From Candidatus Omnitrophota bacterium (GTDB lineage Bacteria; Omnitrophota; Gorgyraeia; Gygaellales; Profunditerraquicolaceae): a DNA stretch of 64,000 bases. Position 1 is the stretch's first letter; every line of letters starts with the position of its first letter. Location: contig JAPLLR010000046.1 of assembly GCA_026387455.1 (NCBI GenBank), positions 4,921 through 68,920 on the forward strand. The letters are read 5' to 3'. Under the pieces are notes generated by a model. The model was not told where the DNA came from. It did no database searches and saw nothing but the letters and a program-made list of their open reading frames with translations. This document shows positions 1,820 to 41,100 of the stretch, piece by piece. The position numbers were made by a program, and so were the translations under genes.

Positions 1820-2893
1820 ATGGAAAGTAAGAAATTAGATTTAGGCCCGGTTCAGAAACTTATTGATGACCCCTCAATATCCGAGATTATGGTTAATGGC
1901 CCTAAAAAGATATTTGTGGAGAAAAACGGGAAAAAGATGTTAAGTGATAGTGTGTTTTCCGGAGAGGAAGAGCTGCTCAGAACTATAGAAAAGTTTTTTA
2001 GTGCCGTTGGGAAACGCGTTGGTAAGGATATCCCTTATGGAGACGTCTGTCTTGAGGATGGCACACGCGTAAATATAATGATGGCGCCTGTTTCACGTTT
2101 TGGTACAGCAGTAACCTTCAGGAAATTCTCTAAGCAGATAGGCTCACTCCAGGATCTAATTGCTAATGGAACCTTAACCCAGAAAGCAGCCGAATTTCTG
2201 ATAGCCTCCATTAAGGGCAAGATAAATATAATATTTTCCGGGGGTACGGGAACTGGCAAAACTACGCTTTTGCAAATGCTTTCTAATTATTTCGCTCCCC
2301 AGGAAAGAGTAGTTACTATTGAAGATGCCGCAGAACTAAGATTCACGCAGGAGAACTATATTTCTATGGAGACAAGGACGCCTGATGAATTTGGCAAGGG
2401 AGGGGTTAGTCTGAAAGATTTAATTTCCAATGCCTTGCGTATGACTCCCGATCGCATTATCGTAGGCGAGGTGCGCGGAGAAGAGGCGATAAACATGTTT
2501 CAGGCTATGGCTACGGGCCATTCCGGGACCATAGGGGTTGTGCATGGAAATTCACCTAAGGATGTGGTAGCCCGCTTAGAAACTATGGTTTTAATGTCAG
2601 GGATGAATATCCCGATGTTAGAATCAAGAAAAATAATTGCTTCTACTATTAATTTAATTGTTCATTTAGAAAGAGTCCAGGATGGTAGCCGTAAGGTTAC
2701 CTATATCACTGAAGTCAGAGGTTTGGATAATAATGAAATCCTGCTTAATGATTTATTTAGTTTTAGTTTTGAGAAGATGGAAAATGATAAAGTAATAGGA
2801 AGCCTTAAGCCGACAATAAAATATTATCCTTTATTCTTTCAGCGCTTTCAGAAACTAAACTTATTAGCTAATGATATATTCGTTAGTGATTAA
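1820..2893 (+). CDS. cpaF: CpaF/TadA-family (Tad/Flp-pilus type, T2SSE superfamily) secretion ATPase
   Basis: 357 aa. Motifs seen: ISEIMVNGPKKIFVEKNGK; Walker A GGTGTGKTT; VVTIEDAAEL (Asp box); Walker B/Arg finger LRMTPDRIIVGEVRGEEA; His box QAMATGHSGTIGVVHGNS; C-terminal RKVTYITEV. This is the full motif series of CpaF/VirB11-type hexameric ATPases. Confidence 0.85.
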   Translation: MESKKLDLGPVQKLIDDPSISEIMVNGPKKIFVEKNGKKMLSDSVFSGEEELLRTIEKFFSAVGKRVGKDIPYGDVCLEDGTRVNIMMAPVSRFGTAVTFRKFSKQIGSLQDLIANGTLTQKAAEFLIASIKGKINIIFSGGTGTGKTTLLQMLSNYFAPQERVVTIEDAAELRFTQENYISMETRTPDEFGKGGVSLKDLISNALRMTPDRIIVGEVRGEEAINMFQAMATGHSGTIGVVHGNSPKDVVARLETMVLMSGMNIPMLESRKIIASTINLIVHLERVQDGSRKVTYITEVRGLDNNEILLNDLFSFSFEKMENDKVIGSLKPTIKYYPLFFQRFQKLNLLANDIFVSD

Positions 2894-2900
2894 ATGAGCC

Positions 2901-2929
2901 TTTAACGGACGCAATATCCGTGATATAAT
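2901..2929 (+). promoter_or_regulatory. possible extended -10 promoter for the second ATPase
   Basis: TGaTATAAT at 2921-2929 with a weak -35 TTTAAC at 2901-2906 (17-nt spacer). It follows a small hairpin, ACGGA-cgcaata-TCCGT (2905-2921). Confidence 0.3.
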
Positions 2930-2993
2930 ATAAACAATGTGTAACGGCAGGCATAAAGCGAATAGAATTTAAGGGAGAAAGACGGCTAAGCTT

Positions 2994-4322
2994 ATGGAAA
3001 AAGAAAGAATTGCGATAGAAAACGAGATTCTGGACAGGCTGGCAGGCAAGATCTTTCTTTTGCAGGACCGGGCGAATAAGCGCGATATCATTTTTCAGAA
3101 GTTCCTGGAGGTGTATAATTCTATCCCCGGACAGGGGCTGGTGAGCAAGTTAAAAAACACGGACATGGAAGTCCTTTTTAATGATTTTTTTTCTTACGGG
3201 TTGATCGACGAGTTTCTTTCTGACCCAAAAGTAGAAGATATCATGATCAACCATCTTTCTCCTATATACGTGCATAAGACAAACTCCGGGTTGGTTAAGA
3301 CAGATAAGAGGTACACCTCCCGCGAAGAGCTGGATCTGTTGATTAAAAAGCTGGTTATTTTTTCTGGCAGGAAAGAAATCAAGAAGATCAACAATATAGA
3401 GCTTGCTGAGGTTAAAGGAAGAGGCAACATAGTTTATTCTCCTTTCGGGCCGCAGATCACAATCACGCGCGCCAAGGAAAAGCCGCTAAGCATAATTGAG
3501 TTGATTGAGAATGGTACGCTTAACCCTGAGATCGCTGCGCAGTTCTGGTTTTATGTGGAAGGATTAGGGGTTAAGCCCGCAAATATTGTCATATCCGGCG
3601 GGCCCGGGGCGGGAAAATCCACGCTCTTAAACGCGCTTTTTAGTTTTATTCCCGTACATGACCGCATTGTAGTCATTGAAGATACTCTGGAGTTAAATAC
3701 CACCCTTCAGGAGAATTGCTCGCGCCTGGAAAGCGATGAAGATGTATTGCTTATGGATTTGGTGAAGAACTCCCTGCGTATGCGGCCGGACAGGATCATT
3801 GTCGGCGAGGTCCGCGGCCAGGAAGCCCAGGATTTGATGACGGCGATGAACATCGGTAAATACTGCATGGGAACAATGCATGCTTCTACCGCCAGGGAAA
3901 CGATCATCAGGCTTCAGAACGAGCCGATGAATGTTCCGGAAGTATTGGTAAATTTAGTGGATGTATTTGTGATTATGCGGCGTTATAATTTAAACGGCAG
4001 AATTAGCCGCGTGGTCGGCGAGCTGGCAGAGACTGCCGGTATGGCGGATAAGACGATCTTGCTTTCTACGCTATGGACTTATGATTTAGGAACGAATAAT
4101 TTTAAAGAATCTTCCGTAGGCAGCGAATACCGCGATAGGCTTGCGTTAGTGAGCGGTAGGAGCACAGTGGAGATTATGGAAGAATTGAAGTTTCGCTCCG
4201 GTATTATCAGGGCGATGTTGAAAAAAGGCATTAAGGAAATGAAGGATGTAACGGAATTTTTCCAGAGGTATGCCGCTGATCCCCGAGAGGCGGCCGCTTC
4301 ATTAGGCATTAAGAGTAGTTAG
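2994..4322 (+). CDS. second, divergent T2SSE-superfamily (FlaI/VirB11/TadA-like) secretion ATPase
   Basis: 442 aa. Motifs seen: VEDIMINHLSPIYVHK; Walker A GGPGAGKST; IVVIEDTLEL; LRMRPDRIIVGEVRGQEA; His-box-like GTMHAST. It is a paralogue of the preceding gene but clearly diverged, with a longer N-terminal domain. Confidence 0.8.
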   Translation: MEKERIAIENEILDRLAGKIFLLQDRANKRDIIFQKFLEVYNSIPGQGLVSKLKNTDMEVLFNDFFSYGLIDEFLSDPKVEDIMINHLSPIYVHKTNSGLVKTDKRYTSREELDLLIKKLVIFSGRKEIKKINNIELAEVKGRGNIVYSPFGPQITITRAKEKPLSIIELIENGTLNPEIAAQFWFYVEGLGVKPANIVISGGPGAGKSTLLNALFSFIPVHDRIVVIEDTLELNTTLQENCSRLESDEDVLLMDLVKNSLRMRPDRIIVGEVRGQEAQDLMTAMNIGKYCMGTMHASTARETIIRLQNEPMNVPEVLVNLVDVFVIMRRYNLNGRISRVVGELAETAGMADKTILLSTLWTYDLGTNNFKESSVGSEYRDRLALVSGRSTVEIMEELKFRSGIIRAMLKKGIKEMKDVTEFFQRYAADPREAAASLGIKSS

Positions 4323-4440: not shown

Positions 4441-5058
4441 ATGGTTATGTCTAGGACGGCACGCTTCATTCCACGGTATGGCTATCTACACATTATGTCA
4501 CGAGGTAATAATCGCCAACGCATTTTCTCATATGCACGCGACTATCGATTTTATTGCTCATGTTTGAGGAAACTTAAGGCAGAGGAGTCAGTTAAGATTC
4601 ATCACTATTGCTTGATGCCGAACCACCTACACCTTTTGCTTGGTGTAGGGCCGGCAAGCAATGTCGGCCGCTTCATGCAAAGGCTTGGGCTGAAGTATTT
4701 CTACTATTATCGCGCAAGGCGCGATTATATAGGGCATCTATTGCAAGGTAGGTTTAAGAGCAAGATAATTGTTGATGAAAAGTACTTTCTGCAATGCGGA
4801 AAGTATATTGAGTTAAACCCGGTGCGAGCGCAGCTGGTGAGTTTTCCGGAAGAATACGCTTATTCAAGCTATCGGCATTATGCCTTAGGAGGGGAAGATG
4901 AGATCGTCGATGACGACTTTTTCTATCTTAGCCTGCACAACGATGCCACTCGTCGAAAGGAGCTTTATTCAAATATGCTCTTTGATGAGAAAGGGTGTGC
5001 GAAACAATTGCATATTGATTCTTCTAACTTAATGTTTAACAATGAGTTAATAGAGTAG
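4441..5058 (+). CDS. REP-associated tyrosine transposase / IS200-like Y1 transposase (HUH superfamily, COG1943-like)
   Basis: 205 aa with a strong SD (GAGGAGG) before the ATG. HUH motif in HHYCLMPNHLHLLL; GHLLQGRFKSK; C-terminal YIELNPVRAQLV..PEEYAYSSYRHY with the catalytic-Tyr region typical of this family. Confidence 0.8.
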   Translation: MVMSRTARFIPRYGYLHIMSRGNNRQRIFSYARDYRFYCSCLRKLKAEESVKIHHYCLMPNHLHLLLGVGPASNVGRFMQRLGLKYFYYYRARRDYIGHLLQGRFKSKIIVDEKYFLQCGKYIELNPVRAQLVSFPEEYAYSSYRHYALGGEDEIVDDDFFYLSLHNDATRRKELYSNMLFDEKGCAKQLHIDSSNLMFNNELIE

Positions 5059-8139: not shown

Positions 8140-11100
8140 ATGCCTAATCAAAAGCCACGGACAGAAGAAGAGAATTCGCTAGAGCAACCCGAGACCCAGG
8201 TGAAATTTGTTTCCAAGTTCCAGGCCTGGATCCGCGTGGTTGCTTTTATTGTTGTAGCGGTCTTTCTTCCGGAGCAGGTAGCCCAGGCAGCGCAGTATGA
8301 TTGGCGCGTGCTCTGGAACAAGCCCGGCGTGACAACTTTTACCCCCAACTATCTTGCTAATCCTGATTCTCTGCGCAATCTGGATATCCCCCTAACCATA
8401 AAGAAGATCCTCAGTGACATCGCCAATAAGCAAGTCAATGCCATAAAGCTTTCTGACAATCTTACCATTGAGCTGGATAGGCCTCTAGAAATGTCCACTG
8501 TGCGCATTGAAGAGATCTTCAACTGGCTCAAGGGCAGGCCTTGCGGCTCAAAAGCGCTTTATGATTTCTTAAGCTTTAAGGGTATCCAAGCCTCTGAGCA
8601 AGATATCGCAGTAATGGCTTTGACCGTGGATATCTTAAATAACGTGGTTAAGCCTGAAGGAAACCCCGAAATTATTCTCAACTCTCTATATGCTTTGTCT
8701 AAGGCTTCTGAGTTCTTCGGCCTTAAGACTTATCCGGTTAAGCTTGCAATAGGAGAGCCTGTTGCTTCCTTAGCGCCATTCTTGGCCCATGTCAACGGCA
8801 ATCACTATGTCTTAGTTACGCGCATAGCAAATGGCAAAGTATATTTCAGCGATCTGCATAAAGAAGAATTTTTGGCCCTAGATAAATTTGCCGAGAAGTT
8901 TACCGGCAATGCTTTAGTCACTCAGCTGATTGATGGCGTTACTGAGCTTAGCGTTAAAGAAGCGATGCAGGTGATGGGGGCAAATGACGATGATTTTGTT
9001 GGGCCTCCAGCTCCAGCGCCCGCTCCACCTAGCTCAGACTTTGTTGGGCCTCCAGCTCCTGCACCAGCTCCTGCACCTGCATCTGCTCCTGCGGCTCCAA
9101 GCTCGGCTTCGTTAAACTCAGGCTATCAGCCGGGCGGCTATAATGGTAATACTTGGGTTCCTCCTTCTGTTGCTACTGCTGATGGCGGTAGGGTTGCTGT
9201 AGGGCCGGTTAGTTCAGGGATAGCCGAAGCCTATAACGCAGCAAATGCAGCGCCTTCACTATCTGCGCCGGCTCCATATTTAGATCGTTTTCAAAGTTCT
9301 GATCTAGGCACAGCTCCTACACCAAAATATGTGGCTCCTTCAGTATCTGCGCCGGCTCCTGTCGCTCCAGCGGCAATAAAGTCTGCTGATTATGCAAGAC
9401 GGCAACAAGCCGAAAACGCATTTAGCTATAGTCCCGGAGCAGGCACTAGTGATTATTATAAAGTCCCGGTAATAGACCAAGAGACAGGGCAGACCATAAG
9501 AACAGAATTAGTGAACAAGCACATTACAGATAGTGCTGAATCTCGCAGAGTCGCTGAAGGATTATTAAAAGATCAGGGCATACAGGTCCAGGGATCTACC
9601 TTGACAACCCTTAAACCTTTAGAACAGCTTGGCACCGCACCTCTTCTCCCGGATAAAATTTTATTTGCAGGAGATGGTAAAACGCCATTTTTGTCATCAC
9701 TCCCTTCAGCGACTAACGGTATTCCTAATTTGGTGGAGCACCAGATCTTGGTGGTGGCTGAAAAAGGAACTCTTCATTATAATATGTATGTTCCTCAAGC
9801 AAACGCTGATATTGCGCCTATCTATGTAGGAGATCATGCTCAGCTGAAAGGGACTCCAGGTTGTCCGAGTGGAATTTGTATGGATGCTGGCTGGAAAGGT
9901 GATACTGCAGCTCGTAATGATGGTGCAGCTTTTGTAGATATTAAAACATGGACGGGATGGCATACAACTACAGGCGAAGTCGCACCCTATGAGCAATTTA
10001 CTAATGGGGTATTTCATATTGGTAAAACTGCGTCAGAGCCACATTTCTCAGGAAACCCTATTGAGAGAGTAATTTTGCAAGATAACGTTGCAGTAGGCAT
10101 TAGTACGCTAGGCCAAACTTCTGCTTATCAACAGCCGGTTGTACTAACTGATGGTACGAAAGTTTCTGCTGAAGGCTGGAGAAATAATTATACGGTTAAT
10201 GTAGTCAAACCGGTTGTCCAGGTAGGACCGGATTTGAAAAACACAAGATATGATGGTTTCTATGTATCGCATGATCAAGCTGGGAATTCTGTTGGAGTAA
10301 GCCCCCTGATGACTAGAGTGGACATAATGGCAGATGTAAACCAGAGGAAAAGTCAGGGGGAGCTATACACACCAACCATGCCCGGAGATAATGTCATAGT
10401 TTTCGCCGGAGATGTAAATTCTTATATTTCAACCGGGGCTGCGATGACTAAAGTTGAGGCATTTGCAAGAGTTCCTAAGATTACCAATGATTTTTATAAT
10501 TATCAGTGGGGCAATAATTTTTATCAGCCTAAAGAATTAGTTGGTTCAGCAGAAAATTATGCTACCGGGCAGGTAATACCTTTTACTAACCCTCAGGAAT
10601 TTATTGATAATACTCATATTAGAATTGCCGCTCCTTTGCAGGATGGAGTTAGCGCTACCGGAGAAATAACCAGTATGTCCGGCTGGAAACAGGATGGTTT
10701 TATGATCCCGCTTGCTCCTTTTACCTCGGCCGACGGGATGGGTTACACAAAGAACGAGCTCACCGGAAAAGTAAAATCGTTCAAGATAGAGGGGGTTGAT
10801 TTTAAAGTTGATTATGCCGCCAAGCAGCCCGATATATTTAATCAGAAGTTATCGGTATATGGCACCGGAGAAGCATTCGCGGTTTTACCGCCTTATAAAA
10901 CGGCGACTGATGGAGGGGCGAGCATCTATATGACAGGGACTAAGGTTGAATTAGGTGTGGGATATAAGGCGGGAGATTCAATAGCAGTTATTTCAACTCA
11001 AGGTATTCAAGGAGGCCGGATAGAATTTCTCGTGCCGAATTTAGATATTAATAAGAATATTCAAGATCAGATAAAAGATGCTACCCAGCCTATGGTTATA

Positions 11101-29100: not shown

Positions 29101-32100
29101 TTGTGGGAGGTAGCAGAGAAGTATCGTCTTATCCAACCGGAAAATGCGGTTACCTTTGATATGGCTGAGCCGGTGGTAGAGAGATTATCCCGCAAGGCAG
29201 GCATCTCTAGAGATGAGGCCAGAGAATTTGTTTATCCGTTGGTAACTCAGAGGACTAACCAGAATATCGCGCAAGACGTGCAGAATGCGCATAATGAGTT
29301 GATGGTAACCATGCCAGTAGCTGCCGATATGATACCTTTACCTACCATCGCCAGTGCGACTAGAGATGGCTCATGGCAGCGCTTTACGGACAGATTAAGA
29401 GAGCGCAATGACGCTGACCTTGCGGAAGCCAAACTTATTGCCGAGGCGGTTAACAATACTCAGGCAAAGGGTTGGAATATTGGCAGAGTTCTTACACATA
29501 TTAGCCCGGAGAATTTAGCAAAGACAAGGCAAGATATTGCTACCGGTAAAACAGATACTAATGTTCCGGAAATTGCCAAGCCTGCTGAGCCGAAAGCTCC
29601 TACTCAGGCAGAGATTCGCTCTAGCCTCGAAACTTTAAGCCAGAAGACAGAACGGGTCACTCTTGCCGGAGGACGCAAGGTAGAGGGAGTCAGGGTAGAG
29701 GCCGGCACAGCGGTTGAGATCAGCAATCACCGTCCGGATGGAAAATTTGTAGCTAAGGATCTAGCCAAGCCTAAGGATACGGCAAAGATTAGCGTAAATA
29801 AGGACGGCTCTGTCTTAATTACTAGCAGAAACGGTTTAGGCGATAAACTTGAGAAATTAATCAAGAAAGAAGTTCCGCAAGCGCCTTATGTAGACGCGGT
29901 AAAGCCGATCTCTAGTATTACGCAGACTGTCACTACGATTGCTGTGTGGGGTTTTAGTGTTGCGATTGTTTTAGCAGCAATGCATACCGGTTGGTTTGAC
30001 CCCGCAGCATTAGCGCATCTTGCCGGCTGGAAGGCGTTCTTAGCCAAGGGAATCATTAACGGATCGGTTATGTTGGCAGCTTTGACTTTGCATGAACTTG
30101 GTCATGCTGCTGTCGCTTTCTTTGCCGGAGACAAGAGCCAGAAGGTCAGGGACAGGTTGACGCTCAATCCGCTTAAGCATTTAAGCGTATGGTCTTTACC
30201 TATATTAGCAGGATTACCGGGCGCGGCAAAGCCGGTAGAAGTCAATTTTGGCAGATTAAATGACAATAAGGTGAGGGCAGTAGCTGCCGCAGGTCCGGCA
30301 GTTAACTTAGTTACTGCTGGCCTGGCGCTAGGAATATTCTTATTGACCGGTAATCCCACGGTTGCCTTGTTCGCAAAGCAGTTTGCAATTATCAGCGCTG
30401 TGCTAGGTACCGTTAACCTTATTCCATTTGCCCTTCCTCAATGGATAAGTAAGTTTATCAATAAAGGCAACAATAAGCCGGTATTATTTGACGGCGCGCG
30501 CGTGATCTTAGGCGCGAAAGAGAAAGTTTCGCCTAAGATGCAAATGGTAGGCGGTGTTGCCCTTATGCTTTATATGTTCGGGCTTGGGCCAATTCTGCAA
30601 GGACTTGGTTTTGGCGCTGGATTAGGCGCAGGCATGGGCGGCGGTGGAGCCGGTGTAGGAGTAGGCGGCGCAGCAGGCACCATCGGCAAAGGTAGTGGTT
30701 CTGGCGGTGGCGCTGGCAGAGGCACAGCTGAGGTTAAGAGAATTGAAGAAGATGCCAAAAAGGTCAAGCAGTGGTTTAATGATGATTTGAAGCAGATAAG
30801 AGAGGCAAGAGAGGCTCTAGACAGACGGCTGAGAGAGTTACGCAGTCTTATACCTAAACCTCCAATATTAAGCGAAGAGCAGAGAATATTTACTGAGAAT
30901 ATCTTCAGCCGCATCTATCCGCGTTTGATGACTGTCGGAACTCGTCTAGTGGATAATTACCAGAGACTAGCTGGTGAATATGGCTTAAAGCCGGGCAATA
31001 TACGTCTTTATGTGGTTGGAGGCACTGCCAAGAATAAACAGTTAATCGGCTTCAACAGTGATATTGATTTAACTTTTGTTGTAGAAAATTCCGCTGGTTC
31101 TTTAGAGGTCCTGCCTAATAGAGAAGAGTTAGTGCAGAGCCTCTTTGCGGACACGATAAGAGATGTCTTCGGCGATGCCACTGATCAGGAGAGGGCAGCC
31201 ATCCGCGGTAAACTAGATATGTTAAGGTTAGGAGGAGCGCTGAATGAGATTAATGGTCCAGCATTGCTCCTGGCTAGCAGCGAATCCAATAAAGCGCAAC
31301 AGTCTTCACCTAAGCCTACTCAGCCTACTGGACAAGGTCAAAATAGGCATCAGGAGACTCCGATTGCCCCGACACCATCCACGACTTTGCCAACTCAGGA
31401 GCAAACCGGAGAAAAATCGCCTCTCAGAGGAGCTGTGGTGGGCATGTTTGGCTCAAGCATTGGCGTAGGCAGCCATCCGATAGACATGCTCGCGCCTTTA
31501 GATACCTTAGGTAATACTGTCAATTCACTACAACATTTACTCAGTATAGGTGCTGCACAACGTGTGCTTAGCCCGGGTATTCCCGGGGCGACTGCGAATG
31601 CGCTTTCGCAGGTCGTCGGTACGACAAGTGCGCACAATATAGTTACAATAGTTGCAGTAGTAGGATTAGTTGTAGTAGTAGTCACAGTTGGCGCAATAGC
31701 TCTGGTTAATAGCTTCAGAGCAGATGCGAAAACTGCAGGTGCAGGAAGTGTAATCAGCGGAGACGCTGAAAAGACCAGTGGTTCCCAGTTTGCGCCCGGT
31801 AAAGATGCCGGAAACAAAGGTTCCAGAGGTGTAACCGAAGGAACTCGTAATGGCACGGGGTTGCCTGTAGGAAACAATACAGGTAATACCGGAAATACTG
31901 GTAATGCAGCTACTGGATCCAATGGAAATAATGCAGGTTCTGGCAAGAGAACCGGTGGTTGGGCGAGTGCGGTCGAATTAGTAAGAAAACTGTCTTCATT
32001 TGTACGTATCAAAGGTCCCGCAAATAGCCTCACTCCCGCGCAAGTTGTGTCGGAAACCTATGGCGCTCGTGGTCCGCCCGCAGCACTAACAATCATTATA

Positions 32101-35100
32101 GCTACTTTCGCCGCTACGGTAATGCTGGGCAACATCTATGCCGCATCAGCGGTAACGGTTGCCGGTTTACTCGGCGGATTAGCCATAACAGCCCTCTCGG
32201 TAATTGCCTCCTTTAGCATTAATCATATATACTCCTCAAGACTTTATCCGCAAGACGGCCAGGCCAGCATTATAACCACAGGCGTCTACCGTTATTCTCG
32301 GCACCCGCAGCATCTTTGTCTGCAGTTATCCATGCTTGGTTTCTTGGCGATGTTCCCCACAGTTTATACCGCCATTACCGTCATCGCCGTTGTTTCATTA
32401 TTCCATCTTGAATCCAGAAAAGAGGAAGCGAAGTTATTAAATGACTCAAAGCTGGGAGCAGATTATGCCGAGTATCTCAAGAATTCCGGCTTGAAGATGC
32501 TCCCCAGAGATATTGCTAAAAAGATTAGGCCGTATACTTCTTCCGTGGCAGGAGTGGTGACGGCTATTGTTGTAATCGGAGGCTTATTAGCGGCCCCCCT
32601 CCAGGGATCGACCCCCGCTAAAGCCTCCGATACAACGTATACTACAACCAATCCAATCAATAATATAAATTTAACCAAGTATGGCGAGCCTTCCGTGGCA
32701 GGAGTTCGTCGTACAAATGTTGTATCAGAGGGCTCCACAGAAGGCCGTCCCTCCAGGACATTGACCCCTTTTGCCGGAGCCCTCTTTACAACTCAAGGAG
32801 GTGTACTATGTGCCCTATTAATATTAACACTATTAGCATTGACCACATCGTTGATTTTGGCAAGGACCGCACCACTTTCGCAGCAGCCCGTGAACCTGAT
32901 ACGCACCACCTTAGGATCTTCCTTATTTATCAGGATACTGGCAACGTCTACACTCGTAACGGCCGGGCTGATAGCTGGGAGGAGCTTATTGGCGGCAGGC
33001 GTGATACCATACTTGAGCGCGTTCTTGATGCTCGTAGGAACGGTGTTCCTACTTATCGACTTAACGGTTCGCACGAATAAAATAGGATTAACGGTTCGCA
33101 CGAATAACAATAACATAGGAGGTGTAAAATGTGCACAGATTATAACGAATTACAATTCAACCACTTCGTCGTTACAGCCGACGGCACAATCTTTGGAAGT
33201 GCTAGACACGAAGGTCACACCTACAACTTTATTCTCCACGGCAACTATGTCCAGGCCCAACACGGTGAACAATGGATCGATCTGGACACGCCTATCGCAG
33301 AAGTTGTCAGGAGAAGGGCTCAATCAGCCTACGCTATCGCTCCCCGGTACAAGGCCAGCAGGTTCATCTTCGATTAGAACTGCCGGAGCAGTGGTAGCTT
33401 TGGTGTTGGGTGTGATTCTTATTGCCGGCGCGCTGGCAGGCATTCCTCATGGAGTGGCCCCTGTCAGCGCCGCCGTTGCATTGGGGATGTGCAGCCAGGA
33501 AGGAGTTGCTACCGAGGAAGATAGCTTTAGGAATTTAAGGTTAACCCCTGATTACATCCGAAGCGTCCGCTTCGATGAGGAAGAAATAAGAGGGGCGGAT
33601 GAAACTGAACGCCGCATCAATCTTCTTATAAAAGGTATGGGGGACTCTAATTCTCCTTCCGAAATTGGAATAGTAAAGATCCCGGGAAGCCTGAAACGGG
33701 ATAGCTGCCGGGTGTTCAGGTTCAGTAATATAGAAATGACATTTTTTGAGGTCACCAGCCGCTTTGATTCGCAGGAAGGAAGATTCTCTTTGCCGGCGTT
33801 GCCTCAACAGCATGCTTTCCTGATTTCATCAAAATCAAATGATGTCATAGGGCACGGAATCATTAATCGGCCTGTCGGTATTAACGATGAAGTATGGTTC
33901 AGGTATGCTATCCACGGCGGACCTCACAGCAAAATTGGAGCTGATTTCCGGAAAAAAGATTATTATGGGACCAAGGCTTTGGTTTTGATTATGGCGATAT
34001 GTGTAAGCAGCGGTATTTTCAAGGGCCCTGTGAATGCGATTACAACATATTTTGAGAGAGATGAACAGCGCGCTGATCCGGAAGCAGTTCCCGCGGGTAA
34101 GAAATTTATATATGCCAGAGGATGTACTCCTGTTAAGGATAATGATTATTCTCTCTGGCAGTTTAGAATGGATGGTAAAGCCATACCTACCGTAGATGTA
34201 GATGAAAAAGAGCTTGCTAAGCTTGATGGTCGGTCAGCGCAGGAAGACGACTTTGTGGAAGTCAAACTCGGTGACCTGGTGTTTGAGAACGGTCAGCTTT
34301 TCTACCGCCCGAAGGCAAAACCTGAGGATTCAAAGGGCTTGTCCGGTTTTGCGCTTAACTTGAGCCTCTGGCAGTCAGGTTTGATTGTCACTGCAGTTAT
34401 CGTTTTAGTCGCAGCTATAGCCGTAGCCGTAATGGCTAATAGCGTCAGGGGAGATATTTCTTACTTGGATAAGGCTAGAGTTATTCTAGCCAGCCGCTAT
34501 CTGGAAGATTATCAGCGCAGGCAGTTGTTTACGAGAATGGCTAAGGGAGAAATCAGGTTTACCCAGGACACTAGGTTCAGCGACGAAGCGGTGTCCATAT
34601 CAGGAAAGTCATTAAAAGATATTGCCCAGGAAGTATTAAAAGTTATTAATTACTATGAAAATTCGACGCCCTCAGTCAAGGCCAAGGGCACCAATATTCT
34701 GGCCAGACTGTTTTCTTCCCTTGGTTTTATAGTGTTTGTTATTGTGGGTATATATGAATTTGTCTATGCCATGTCTGATTATAACGATGGCAGGGGCAAA
34801 AATTACGCTGCTATGAATAATGTGGATGAACTTAGCTATTCCGTTAGAGATCGTATTTGGGCTTCTCAGGAAGAGTTCATCAGATTATTAGGCGAGGATC
34901 CCAGTAAGGCTGTAAAAGCCGACAAAAAAGAGAAAATCGGCAAGGTAGCTCAGATGTTGGATTTCATGAATGTCCATCGCCAGGCCATCCAGAAATATGC
35001 CGATCAGTATGGAATCGATCCGGAGCTACTTGCCGCGATCCTCTTGACTGAAAGACTGGATATGTTTGAAGGAGATTTCCCGTGGGAGGTTAATACTGAC

Positions 35101-38100: not shown

Positions 38101-41100
38101 ATAAATGAGATGGCCAGGCAAGCTAGCCGCGCGCCGAATAATATGTTTAACCGCGCCAATATTGTACGCATATCCGTATTACTTGCCGCAGTTATTCTGT
38201 TAATCTCCGTAGGATTATTCCATTTCGTAATTCTGGCAGCAACCACAGTAGAAGCAGATATCGAAGAAACAAAGTCTAGGATCAAGGCTGAAATATTAAG
38301 GCTTAGCGGTTCTGTATATGACAATGAGAGGTCTAAAGTAATAGCCGAATTCTTTAAAGGTTTGCCGGAGCAAGACCTTGCTCTGGCAGTGGATGTACTT
38401 TTGGAATTATCCGATGATCCTAGTATTGGACAATGCTGCATAAATCACTCTATGACCCTTTCTCTTGCAGAGAGCTGCCGCGTCAGGCCGGAGCTTATGG
38501 AGATAGTGGCTTCGAGAATTGCGAATTTAATAAGTCAGGGCATAGGCAGGAAGGCTATGCTGGTAGAGATCATCAATTTATTTAGTCTGGTATCTTATGA
38601 GAACCGCGTCTTAGGAAAATCAGATTTCTCAGCGATGCTCTTGTGGAAGATGCAGGAATTAGGCATACCTATGCCGAGAATTATGGAATTGTTGGGTGGG
38701 TGTTTCAAGACCTGGCGTGAAGATTTGGAATATGATTATACATGGCCTGAACAATCTCTCGGAGAGAGCATTGGTTTAAATTGCAATGGCGGAGCGGTAA
38801 TATTGAAGTCCATTGATAAGAGCTGGTATTATATTTTTAACACAGACAATGTTTGTATAGGCAGCGCGCTGATTAGCTGCGCTATGCAAAGGAATGCAGC
38901 TTACCTTTATATTAATATATGGACTGGAGCAGGCAAGGGCATAGGGACTGAGATTATGCGCTTTGTCGCCGAAAAGATAAGCAGAGTTGATGGGCCCAGC
39001 GTTATAGGGGTATTTGTCCCGGCGGACAAGGATTATGTAAGATTCTTGCTGCGCTGCGCAAAGCTGGGAGTTATCAATAGAGTTGAGCTTAAAGTCGAAG
39101 ATAGCGCTAAGTATATCAATAGCGTAGGCATGGGCAATTGGAATATGCCGGAACAGTCTTCGGGTTGGCAGGTAATTACGAATGAAGCAGAGATGGATAA
39201 TTTTGGCAAAGGCAGAATATTTGCCAGATGCATTGTAGATGCAAACCAGCCGCAGACTCCTTCCGTGGCAGGAAAGAATGCGGCTACTGACAATAAGGGC
39301 ACGGAGGAACAGAGAAAGGTAAGCTCTTCCGTAGCCCTTGTTACAGACAAGCTTGGGGTGCTGGTAGCGATAGTTGGAGCATCAATTCTATTAGCGTTGT
39401 CAGCGAAATTCTTAGGGCTGGCTTTATTAATCGGCGTTGCAGCGGTAAACAATGATGATGCGAAATACGTGTTGAATATCGAACTCCTCAAGGCAGAGCT
39501 TGTCAATAAGGGGATTCTTCGCGATAAAGATCAACCGCTTAATATTAATCCTGCAGTATTAATTGCTGTTAGCGATTTCTGCTATACCGATGGAGAGTAT
39601 TTGGTAGGAAGAGAATTCCGTAGGCTTGCCAAGGCATTAGGGCTTGTGATGAGGGAGCTGGAGAGAAGAACCGGTAAACCGGCTGCAGAGATCAGTCTTA
39701 GCCAGAGCAGCCTTACCAAAGAAGAAATCGCAAACATCTTAAATGCGGCTAAGGAAGAAGATTATGCGCAAAGAGAGGTAAGCGCGTTCTCCAGAAAGAT
39801 AGAGCTTGGCCAGAGGTTGCTTAAGGGCGGCACTTCTGCCGAGACCATCCTGCAATTCTTAACTGGTAGATTCTTTGGGGCAACCTCAGGGTCCACTAGG
39901 TCTATCAGCGCTACTGAACATAAAGTGAAAGATTTACTCTTTGATATAGATCATACCCAGGAAGGCAAGTCTTTGCGTAAGAAAGAAGAGACAGCCAGAT
40001 TACTGAAAGAGCTTCTCGGCCAGGTGGTGATCGACAATGTCAATATTCCCAAGTTTTTCGCCTTTGATATCGATGACACCTTAACCAAAGCAGACATTAA
40101 ATCCTTTAACGCTATGGTTGAAGTCTTAAAAGAAGACCCATCTGCATTTGTAGGAATAATTACCGGAACAGGCGCTTTTGACCTGAATTATGATTCAGAA
40201 GAAGAGCGCATTGCTGAGAAAGACGCAATATATGACACCAAGATTAAGCCGGCTCTGGTTAAACTTGGCCTGAACCCGGATCGCCTAGATTTTGTTATCT
40301 CTGTTGTTTCTACTCCAAAGCCGAGAAAGCAATGGACTGAGTCGCCTATGGTTAATCCTTGGGTTAGCATTAATGCATACTGGTGTGTAAAGATTAATGA
40401 CGGAAACGGTGGTTTTATCAAACAGTATCCGACAGAAAGCAACTTTAGAGGTATAAATAAGCTCACCGGAGCCAGCAAATTATTCGAATATTTTGCCCAT
40501 AAATTCTCTAACAACGCAACAGTTTCTTGGGAAAGGGCAGCTCAGTTGGCTACTCAGTTCCTGCATAGGTCAGTATTGGTTATGGCGGATGATGATCTTG
40601 AGCATGCGCGTATTCCTGTGATTTGCAAGCCTACCAATAGCAAGGAAAAAGGTATGTTGCAGCAGCTTGGCGCTCATTCGCGCGAAAACGAGATACAGGA
40701 GCCTTTCGGAGTAGGCAGGATTTATATTAATACTAACGTTATCAAGTGCCCCTGGTTAACCATCGAAAAAGCTCCTGAAGAGTTTGTTTTTGATTTTGAA
40801 ATTGATGTCATCCTGGGTCTGACTACATTGCTTGAGCATATGAATGACCCTAAGCGTAACGCGCGTATCTTTAACGTGGAAATCGAAGCCCATCGCGTTA
40901 AACCGGTTAACGGTACTGCTAACGGTAATTCCACAGATCCTCAGGTCGCGACTTACCGCGCTCCCGGCTCAAGGGATAGGGGCGCGCGCAAGGGCTTGCC
41001 CAAGGAGATCAGAAACGCCGAAGAAAAAGATTCCGCGAACATCAGGCAATACTTGCTTGACGATGACGGCGAGGTAGCTAAGCTCATCGCAGGGCGCAAT

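Follow-up and report, generated by a model that had tools for sequence, protein, structure and literature searches.

We analysed a 64,000-nucleotide stretch of DNA from a Candidatus Omnitrophota bacterium (contig JAPLLR010000046.1 of assembly GCA_026387455.1), hereafter the window, which holds a giant open reading frame (ORF) running on the + strand in frame +1 from position 8140 to the window end at 64000, more than 18,620 codons. Positions 32529-33377 of this frame are in all likelihood a conserved module carried inside the giant gene, namely a structured RNA, present at least once, and after it one or two genes of a small-protein family. In the window the small genes are ORF A (32808-33080, +, frame +3), a nested gene of 90 amino acids belonging to a conserved family of about 90 residues, and ORF B (33129-33377, +, frame +3), a divergent tandem paralogue of 82 amino acids. 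Both are read in the -1 frame relative to the giant frame, and all parts of the module lie on the sense strand.

Small genes nested in a giant reading frame

A first-pass annotation of this DNA had described both ORFs, and their positions and lengths hold: they are the sole frame-3 ORFs of at least 60 amino acids within the giant ORF, both open with ATGTGC, and the giant frame does stay open across them, as it does from 8140 to the window end. The Shine-Dalgarno (SD) sequence AGGAGGTG lies at 32796-32803 (+) ahead of ORF A and at 33117-33124 (+) ahead of ORF B, in each case 4 nucleotides before the ATG; the spacing of 6 nucleotides given earlier is right for the GGAGG core, not for the full element. 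The start and stop signals of the small ORFs are conserved: all 34 complete homologues begin with ATG preceded by a GGAGG-type site 4-8 nucleotides upstream, and the metagenome loci likewise carry the site. The segment affected is larger than the roughly 570 bp first proposed, extending from about 32529 to 33377 without giant-protein selection and including two copies of the structured RNA.

We compared the module across 70 related loci, almost all from Omnitrophota (35 from species-representative genomes, 32 from metagenomes and several found by exact protein look-up, for totals of 38 genome-derived and 32 metagenome-derived loci), fetching up to 10 kb of flanking DNA on each side of each small ORF. 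At 69 of the 70 a giant open frame encloses the small ORF, with strand and frame offset as in the window, and the sole exception is one copy with an indel; the window and these 69 loci thus hold nested genes in the strict sense of an ORF wholly inside a longer same-strand ORF in another frame. The giant frame is open over the entire fetched DNA at 59 loci, and a second family member, where a locus has one, never differs from the first in strand or frame. We consider it virtually impossible that the arrangement is a product of chance, or of an assembly or chimera artefact in the window, as the first-pass annotation had allowed: nothing favours such an artefact beyond its prior plausibility for a metagenomic contig, and the same architecture recurs at the 69 loci from independent samples and assemblers, alongside the resampling and Markov statistics given below.

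The small genes are far better conserved than their surroundings. By tblastn the giant-frame flanks of the window have essentially no homology to other loci, while the small ORF is 50-90 % identical. Some giant ORFs contain extra family ORFs at a distance of kilobases, without exception in the frame of the first (L013, 3662-3889; L076, 12245-12478; L074; L075); those of L074, L075 and L076 each have their own RNA copy upstream, and the module has therefore been duplicated within giant genes. Gene callers (JGI, NCBI) call the nested ORF and then restart the giant gene, typically about 80 nucleotides later, or overlap it (L001, 747-1099; L002-L006; L007, 319-588; L043-L047), so that public annotations split giant genes at this point.

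ORF A has 89 database homologues with 52-93 % identity, every one of 85-100 amino acids and several labelled Candidatus Omnitrophota, and an alignment of 36 family members has 14 invariant columns and the motif VYTRNGRADSWEEL. With an exhaustive profile search the family grows to 226 cluster representatives, and of the 150 listed nearly all have 76-124 amino acids; the family proteins are near neutral, with a median isoelectric point (pI) of 6.45. ORF B has four database homologues (82-85 amino acids) and two more found by tblastn, which also matches it weakly to A-type genes of other loci. The paralogy of A and B, proposed earlier from the translations, is borne out by profiles: pairwise BLASTP found no match between the two, whereas hhalign aligned the A family to B over 74 columns with 97.9 % probability (E = 6e-13). 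AlphaFold2 gave a confident predicted fold for both peptides, with a predicted local distance difference test (pLDDT) score of 86.6 and a predicted template-modelling (pTM) score of 0.77 for ORF A, and 90.9 and 0.80 for ORF B; the models share one topology, in which five strands are followed by a helix and a last strand. Pfam, NCBIfam, PHROGs and the sequences of the PDB held no match for A, B or the distant members described next, and neither ORF A nor ORF B had a significant profile or fold match to a known protein family.

The search for free-standing homologues that the first-pass annotation had called for was productive. Two distant members, P0175 and P0244 (56 and 48 bits with the family hidden Markov model), are ordinary genes between mraZ and rsmH at the head of a division and cell-wall (dcw) cluster, where they are followed by an ftsL-like gene, ftsI, murE, murF, mraY, murD, ftsW and murG. 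The contigs also encode neighbours that carry the label Candidatus Omnitrophota. Free-standing paralogues occupy this position at L080 (10001-10264), L081 (1547-1810) and L082 (1814-2188). Their off-frames are full of stops, and the RNA is not present. In NCBI metagenome-assembled genomes (MAGs) the MraZ and RsmH accessions are consecutive, and the small gene is therefore apparently unannotated in those MAGs.

The start signals of the family also bear on the idea that ORF A is not initiated by itself and that programmed -1 frameshifting, with an SD-like stimulator as in dnaX, instead joins it to the giant protein's upstream half, giving a truncated product with the ORF A domain at its end. The small-ORF frame is indeed -1 relative to the giant frame at every locus, and internal SD-like elements are known frameshift stimulators (dnaX, prfB). 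We consider frameshifting highly improbable: the invariant ATG stands at initiation-type spacing from GGAGG, a stop 3-15 nucleotides before the ATG closes the small-ORF frame in L032, L011, L019, L027 and L037, the spacer between SD and ATG varies and has no conserved slippery heptamer, and the free-standing paralogues begin at the equivalent residue.

Selection on the small genes and stop avoidance in the giant frame

We compared the window with a close relative, L044, which has 93 % identity in the ORF A protein and about 94 % in the DNA downstream. By frame-3 codon position (1/2/3), the two differ at 4/1/17 sites in ORF A and 15/12/40 in ORF B; downstream of the module (33400-34150) the corresponding frame-1 counts are 8/7/27. 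Summed over eleven close pairs, the small-ORF counts are 82/63/362, and the same nucleotides retain 78-100 % identity as small protein compared with 39-97 % in the giant frame, where the codons changed between the window and L044 comprise 18 non-synonymous and 4 synonymous cases. The three-periodic pattern shows that the small ORFs are under purifying selection at the protein level, and bears out the earlier suggestion that selection has acted on frame 3 while the giant frame just stays open. This is not classical dual coding; the giant-frame amino-acid sequence is unconstrained across the module.

Divergence between the window and L044 over 32749-34150 is mosaic. Nucleotide identity is about 94 % over 33400-34150 (above 97 % beyond about 33470), about 92 % in ORF A and about 73 % in ORF B, and the DNA upstream of the SD is unalignable, a pattern suggestive of recombination in the module or of its faster turnover.

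A frame plot, as had been proposed for this region, gave a consistent answer for ORF A. With a three-periodic Markov coding model trained on the rest of the giant ORF and scored in 1,853 windows of 270 nucleotides, frame 3 exceeds frame 1 at ORF A alone (+31 bits, against a mean of -110 and a standard deviation of 26).

Although its peptide is free to change, the giant frame is not free to close. Resampling the small ORF synonymously with the giant-frame codon usage of each locus leads to an expectation of 5.4 giant-frame stops per ORF A; none was observed at any of 34 loci (34/34), an outcome with a probability of about 1e-3 per locus. For the window itself, a stop-free giant frame was obtained in fewer than 1 of 2000 resamplings of ORF A and with a probability of 0.028 for ORF B. 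Copies of the ORF B type have no giant-frame stops against 2.7-4.6 expected (2.75 for the ORF B of the window), and the +2 frame, as a control, has 9.8 stops observed against 9.4 expected. Codon usage accounts for the difference: in the ORF A family, compared with the giant frame, the fraction of Leu TTA is 0.04 against 0.34, of Ile ATA 0.06 against 0.35, of Val GTA 0.07 against 0.30, and of Leu CTY 0.86 against 0.28. NTA and NTG codons are depleted in the small ORFs because they create TAA, TAG or TGA in the next frame. We conclude from these biases that the giant frame is kept stop-free by synonymous codon choice in the small ORFs.

This stop avoidance is what chiefly separates read-through of the module from the alternative that the giant ORF is in fact several genes of an operon, the module being an intergenic leader with small genes after which the downstream protein starts by itself, for example by termination-reinitiation. 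Gene callers annotate the small gene and then the giant gene 80 nucleotides later, as such an operon would have it; a segment resembling a signal peptide, a transmembrane (TM) helix or a lipobox often lies just downstream (L001, L031 and the window); and a structured leader with a strong SD resembles a 5' untranslated region. A frame not in use should nevertheless gain stops, about 5.4 per ORF A, and none is found in 34 of 34 loci, with NTA and NTG avoided; the frame is open through the RNA copies and ORF B too; and the upstream part ends in no stop, so ribosomes arriving from upstream must read through. We therefore regard separate operon genes as improbable, and leave room for a mixed model in which read-through and re-initiation both occur.

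Two further features of the segment can be placed beside the codon bias. The antisense ORF noted in the first pass (32793-33116, -) is indeed open, in the codon register of ORF A, and is a by-product and not a gene: antisense stops correspond to sense TTA, CTA and TCA, and the avoidance of NTA in ORF A also removes TTA and CTA. Just 16 of the 34 loci have an antisense frame free of stops; 0.88 stops are observed where 2.9 would be expected. The 27-bp duplication of the ORF A tail and stop (33061-33107, +) is likewise real, a 20-nucleotide exact repeat TTAACGGTTCGCACGAATAA at 33061-33080 and 33088-33107 with a spacing of 27 nucleotides, in frame for the giant ORF. It is specific to the window, being absent from the 93 %-identical relative L044, which has an in-frame 33-nucleotide indel there.

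A structured RNA ahead of the small genes

The first-pass annotation contained neither the RNA motif nor the spread of the arrangement among Omnitrophota. The RNA is about 140 nucleotides long and forms two hairpins. The loop of hairpin 1, UUCCGUGGCAGGA, resembles an SD (AGGAG); hairpin 2 is long, with an invariant CCUCC, complementary to GGAGG, in its apical loop and a conserved UGACCCC bulge. Two tandem copies precede ORF A in the window. The upstream copy (32529-32636, +) matches our covariance model R1 with 85.5 bits (E = 3e-18) and has a folding free energy of -52.5 kcal/mol (z = -4.6); it has UUCCGUGGCAGGA as the loop of hairpin 1, and in hairpin 2 the CCUCC loop is accompanied by a GACCCC bulge. 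The second copy (32661-32795, +), abutting the SD of ORF A, matches with 130.8 bits (E = 2e-29) and folds at -63.3 kcal/mol (z = -6.1), and its R1 match extends to 32812, covering the SD and the ATG. What appears upstream as a conserved peptide of the giant frame (NLTQP..SVAG..LQGLTPL..) is a motif at the nucleotide level, since within CCGTGGCAGGA third positions with four-fold degeneracy hardly vary. Translated in the giant frame, the RNA copies (32529-32795, for example SVAGVVTAIVVIGGLLAAPL) are hydrophobic enough for a TM-helix call, and topology predictions for giant proteins may take in such non-protein stretches.

Covariation is extensive. RNAalifold on 24 sequences gave 24 pairs, 22 of them with compensatory changes, and across the analyses 20-22 of the 24 pairs have double changes. 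Standard pairs fill 91.5 % of cells, compared with 75 % after shuffling and 41-54 % in slid controls, and both sides have changed in 85 cells, compared with 25.5 after shuffling and 13-25 in slid controls; none of 500 shuffles reached the observed values. A separate set of 33 metagenome instances has 96.1 % pairing and 154 double-change cells against 45.7, with slid controls at 41-58 % overall. G-U pairs are frequent, which places the structure on the sense strand. The RNA thus has a covarying structure on the mRNA strand adjoining a start, as is characteristic of cis-regulatory leaders.

R1 matches lie directly 5' of the first small ORF in nearly all loci, including those with the order B then A (L024, L028). 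The motif is often tandem; some extra copies lead extra family ORFs, and others, including the upstream copy in the window, stand alone. A degenerate orphan copy lies 6 kb downstream (39231-39365, +; R1 38.5 bits, E = 1e-6), with hairpin 1 and its UUCCGUGGCAGGA loop intact and a hairpin 2 that has neither the CCUCC loop nor the UGACCCC bulge, and with neither an SD nor a family ORF after it. Searching Rfam with cmscan over 31500-34500 at E up to 1 gave 0 matches, a literature search on the loop sequence returned irrelevant matches only, and a scan for sigma-70 promoters and terminators found no excess over the shuffled expectation. Many contigs start or stop in or next to the RNA motif (L032, L044, L048, L052, L055), which suggests that the repeated RNA breaks assemblies.

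The presence of this RNA raises the alternative that only an RNA or DNA function is conserved, as part of a larger noncoding RNA, a recombination site or a mobile element, and that the small ORFs are untranslated. A covarying RNA does adjoin the ORFs, and the module is modular and repeated, with assemblies often breaking there. We find this hardly credible given the three-periodic variation in the small ORFs (82/63/362) and the conservation of their length, start and stop, the confident AlphaFold2 folds of both paralogues, and the occurrence of family members as ordinary genes of the dcw operon; moreover, no integrase, transposase or reverse transcriptase is tied to the module. Other kinds of element were considered and set aside: a group I or II intron or an intein, as the host frame is kept open, no structure of a splicing kind is seen and SD and stop belong to the ORF itself; folded DNA of the integron attC kind, as the sense-strand G-U pairs fit RNA and there is no integrase; and a type III toxin-antitoxin system, as the RNA unit is about 140 nucleotides, there is no terminator and the protein is unrelated.

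Proposed mechanism, host gene and significance

We propose that ribosomes translating the giant frame pass through the module and render it as a disposable linker of about 280 residues, and that other ribosomes would start at the internal SD sites and produce the small proteins from the same mRNA. The RNA may act as a cis-acting leader that controls internal initiation, or another step of giant-gene expression; the first role is suggested by the complementarity of the CCUCC loop to the start-site GGAGG and by the SD-like AGGAG displayed by hairpin 1. The small protein may work with or regulate the giant protein, or may serve cell-envelope or division functions, a partnership suggested by the dcw paralogue (guilt by association) and by analogy with comS/srfA and Rz/Rz1.

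Several points count against this proposal. Read-through and internal initiation are inferred from signatures of selection only. Within a few kilobases of the module the giant frame breaks, or ends, in 11 of the 70 loci, and these could be real gene boundaries. In the broken loci that we examined (L014, L023, L029, L036, L042) another long same-strand open frame overlaps each break, which is the signature of an indel, and the breaks near the module, also found in L049, L068, L070 and L078, are probably indel errors; real frameshifts, whether programmed or evolutionary, are a less likely reading. The loci share descent and some are duplicated between collections (L024 = L062, L034 = L072), so that 70 loci are not 70 independent trials. 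The giant frame just 3' of the module is often hydrophobic and signal-peptide-like or lipobox-like, which fits a separately initiated protein as well. For the RNA, the alignment of metagenome instances (A5) had been fitted to the model; CCUCC and GGAGG are both invariant, so that covariation is uninformative on SD/anti-SD pairing between them; and the minimum-energy fold of the window sequence puts CCUCC in a 5-nucleotide loop and does not sequester the SD.

The hydrophobic stretches after the module include 33385-33480 in the window (AVALGMC), about 1099-1180 in L001 (LLVALATGC) and one in L031 (SIVGC). They may be relics of a separately targeted downstream part of the protein, or signals for it.

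The free-standing paralogues also inform the origin of the nested genes. Their existence means that the family is not confined to nested copies, which makes de novo overprinting of ORF A unlikely. We propose that the nested copies began as an independent gene, which the giant frame later came to traverse. Two of the first-pass readings can be judged accordingly. Genuine overprinted genes with internal starts are supported, by the ATG and GGAGG-type site in 34 of 34 homologues and by the conserved length and predicted fold. A captured cassette is supported in part, by the free-standing paralogues and by a giant-frame peptide that is unconstrained yet stop-free; the capture itself, as to direction, remains our interpretation.

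The host of the cassette, judged by its sequence, is an Omnitrophota mixed-domain giant gene. The giant ('Archaeovorin'-like) genes of this phylum are very long single ORFs with a C39 peptidase, response-regulator and mixed domains and with type II/IV secretion genes upstream (10.1101/2023.11.21.568195), and the host gene fits this published definition in length, domains and upstream T2SSE genes. Its Pfam domains are scattered: Peptidase_C39 near the N-terminus, Peptidase_M50, ICMT (just 5' of the small-ORF module), Response_reg and Glyoxalase; no SecA-like domain was found in that portion of the giant gene which falls within the window. The giant gene is preceded by two genes for T2SSE secretion ATPases (1820-4322, +), by one for an IS200-like Y1 transposase (4441-5058, +), located between these two and the giant gene, and by a TPR gene. 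A frame-2 ORF of 74 amino acids within the giant gene (31244-31468, +), with an SD-like TAGGAGGAG upstream, was set aside as a further nested gene, its Leu/Arg-rich translation having the appearance of off-frame junk.

Same-strand nested genes and leader RNAs are known kinds of element. In Bacillus subtilis, comS is co-transcribed with srfAB, which ties synthesis of a small regulator to srfAB expression. Like the small genes here, comS has a ribosome-binding site of its own and sits in another frame, on the strand of the very large multi-domain gene that contains it (PMC12915044). ComS differs in having 46 amino acids and a narrow lineage, whereas the present family is widespread among Omnitrophota, duplicated and provided with free-standing paralogues; no relation to ComS in sequence or fold came to light, nor was one sought; the srfAB host frame encodes a functional enzyme domain, true dual coding, whereas here the host frame is just stop-free. 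We know of no structured RNA leader for comS. The products of lambda Rz and Rz1 act together, and Rz1, like ORF A, lies wholly inside another gene on the same strand in a shifted frame; Rz/Rz1, however, serves phage lysis and has protein constraint on both of its frames, it has no RNA leader and no homology to the module, and a partnership of ORF A with the giant protein is our proposal. Internal out-of-frame ORFs of Escherichia coli, such as GndA and those found by retapamulin Ribo-seq, similarly have an internal start in an annotated gene (10.1101/520783; PMC11230408), but are mostly below 50 amino acids and poorly conserved, whereas here the nested protein outconserves its host and has a confident predicted fold.

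The RNA likewise has partial parallels. Leaders that act on SD accessibility (riboswitches, ribosomal-protein leaders, RNA thermometers) resemble it in placing a covarying structure directly 5' of a strong SD, here with the invariant CCUCC; the present RNA differs in lying inside a translated ORF whose frame is kept open, in being often tandem and sometimes without an adjacent ORF, and in having no Rfam match. In lambda, a small RNA-binding protein is encoded directly after its RNA site. Antitermination modules of this sort (lambda nutL-N, HK022 put, Bacillus EAR) share with the module hairpin RNAs in or ahead of very long transcription units; the likeness is one of layout, not homology, and the small protein here is near neutral (pI 6.45), not arginine-rich. 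Nested, overlapping or out-of-frame ORFs in Omnitrophota giant genes were not found described in the literature searched. What is new is a conserved cassette inside giant ORFs, found widely among Omnitrophota, in a host frame that is kept stop-free and nothing more, with a previously unrecorded RNA motif within coding sequence.

Bacterial genes nested on the same strand are mostly tiny and poorly conserved. Here many Omnitrophota retain a protein of about 90 amino acids with a confident predicted fold, along with its duplicate, within ORFs that are the longest known from bacteria, and its conservation far exceeds that of its host. The module is also a clean natural example of selection to avoid stops without protein constraint, exerted through synonymous choice in another gene. 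Annotation is affected as well: gene callers split giant genes at the module, and the frame-1 'peptide' of about 280 residues can be mistaken for TM helices, with consequences for published estimates of length and topology. The dcw paralogue offers a first possible link of the giant genes to cell-envelope or division biology. It is conceivable, if on balance unlikely, that the RNA and the small protein together form a dedicated device for expression or control of the giant gene, either a switch of RNA and protein that lets transcription or translation continue into the distal tens of kilobases (nut/N-like, or a checkpoint) or a coupling to the cell-division and cell-wall programme, the latter suggested by the paralogue at the head of the dcw operon. 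Were this so, the giant ORFs of Omnitrophota would be composite units with internal regulatory RNAs and genes, and not genes with a single product.

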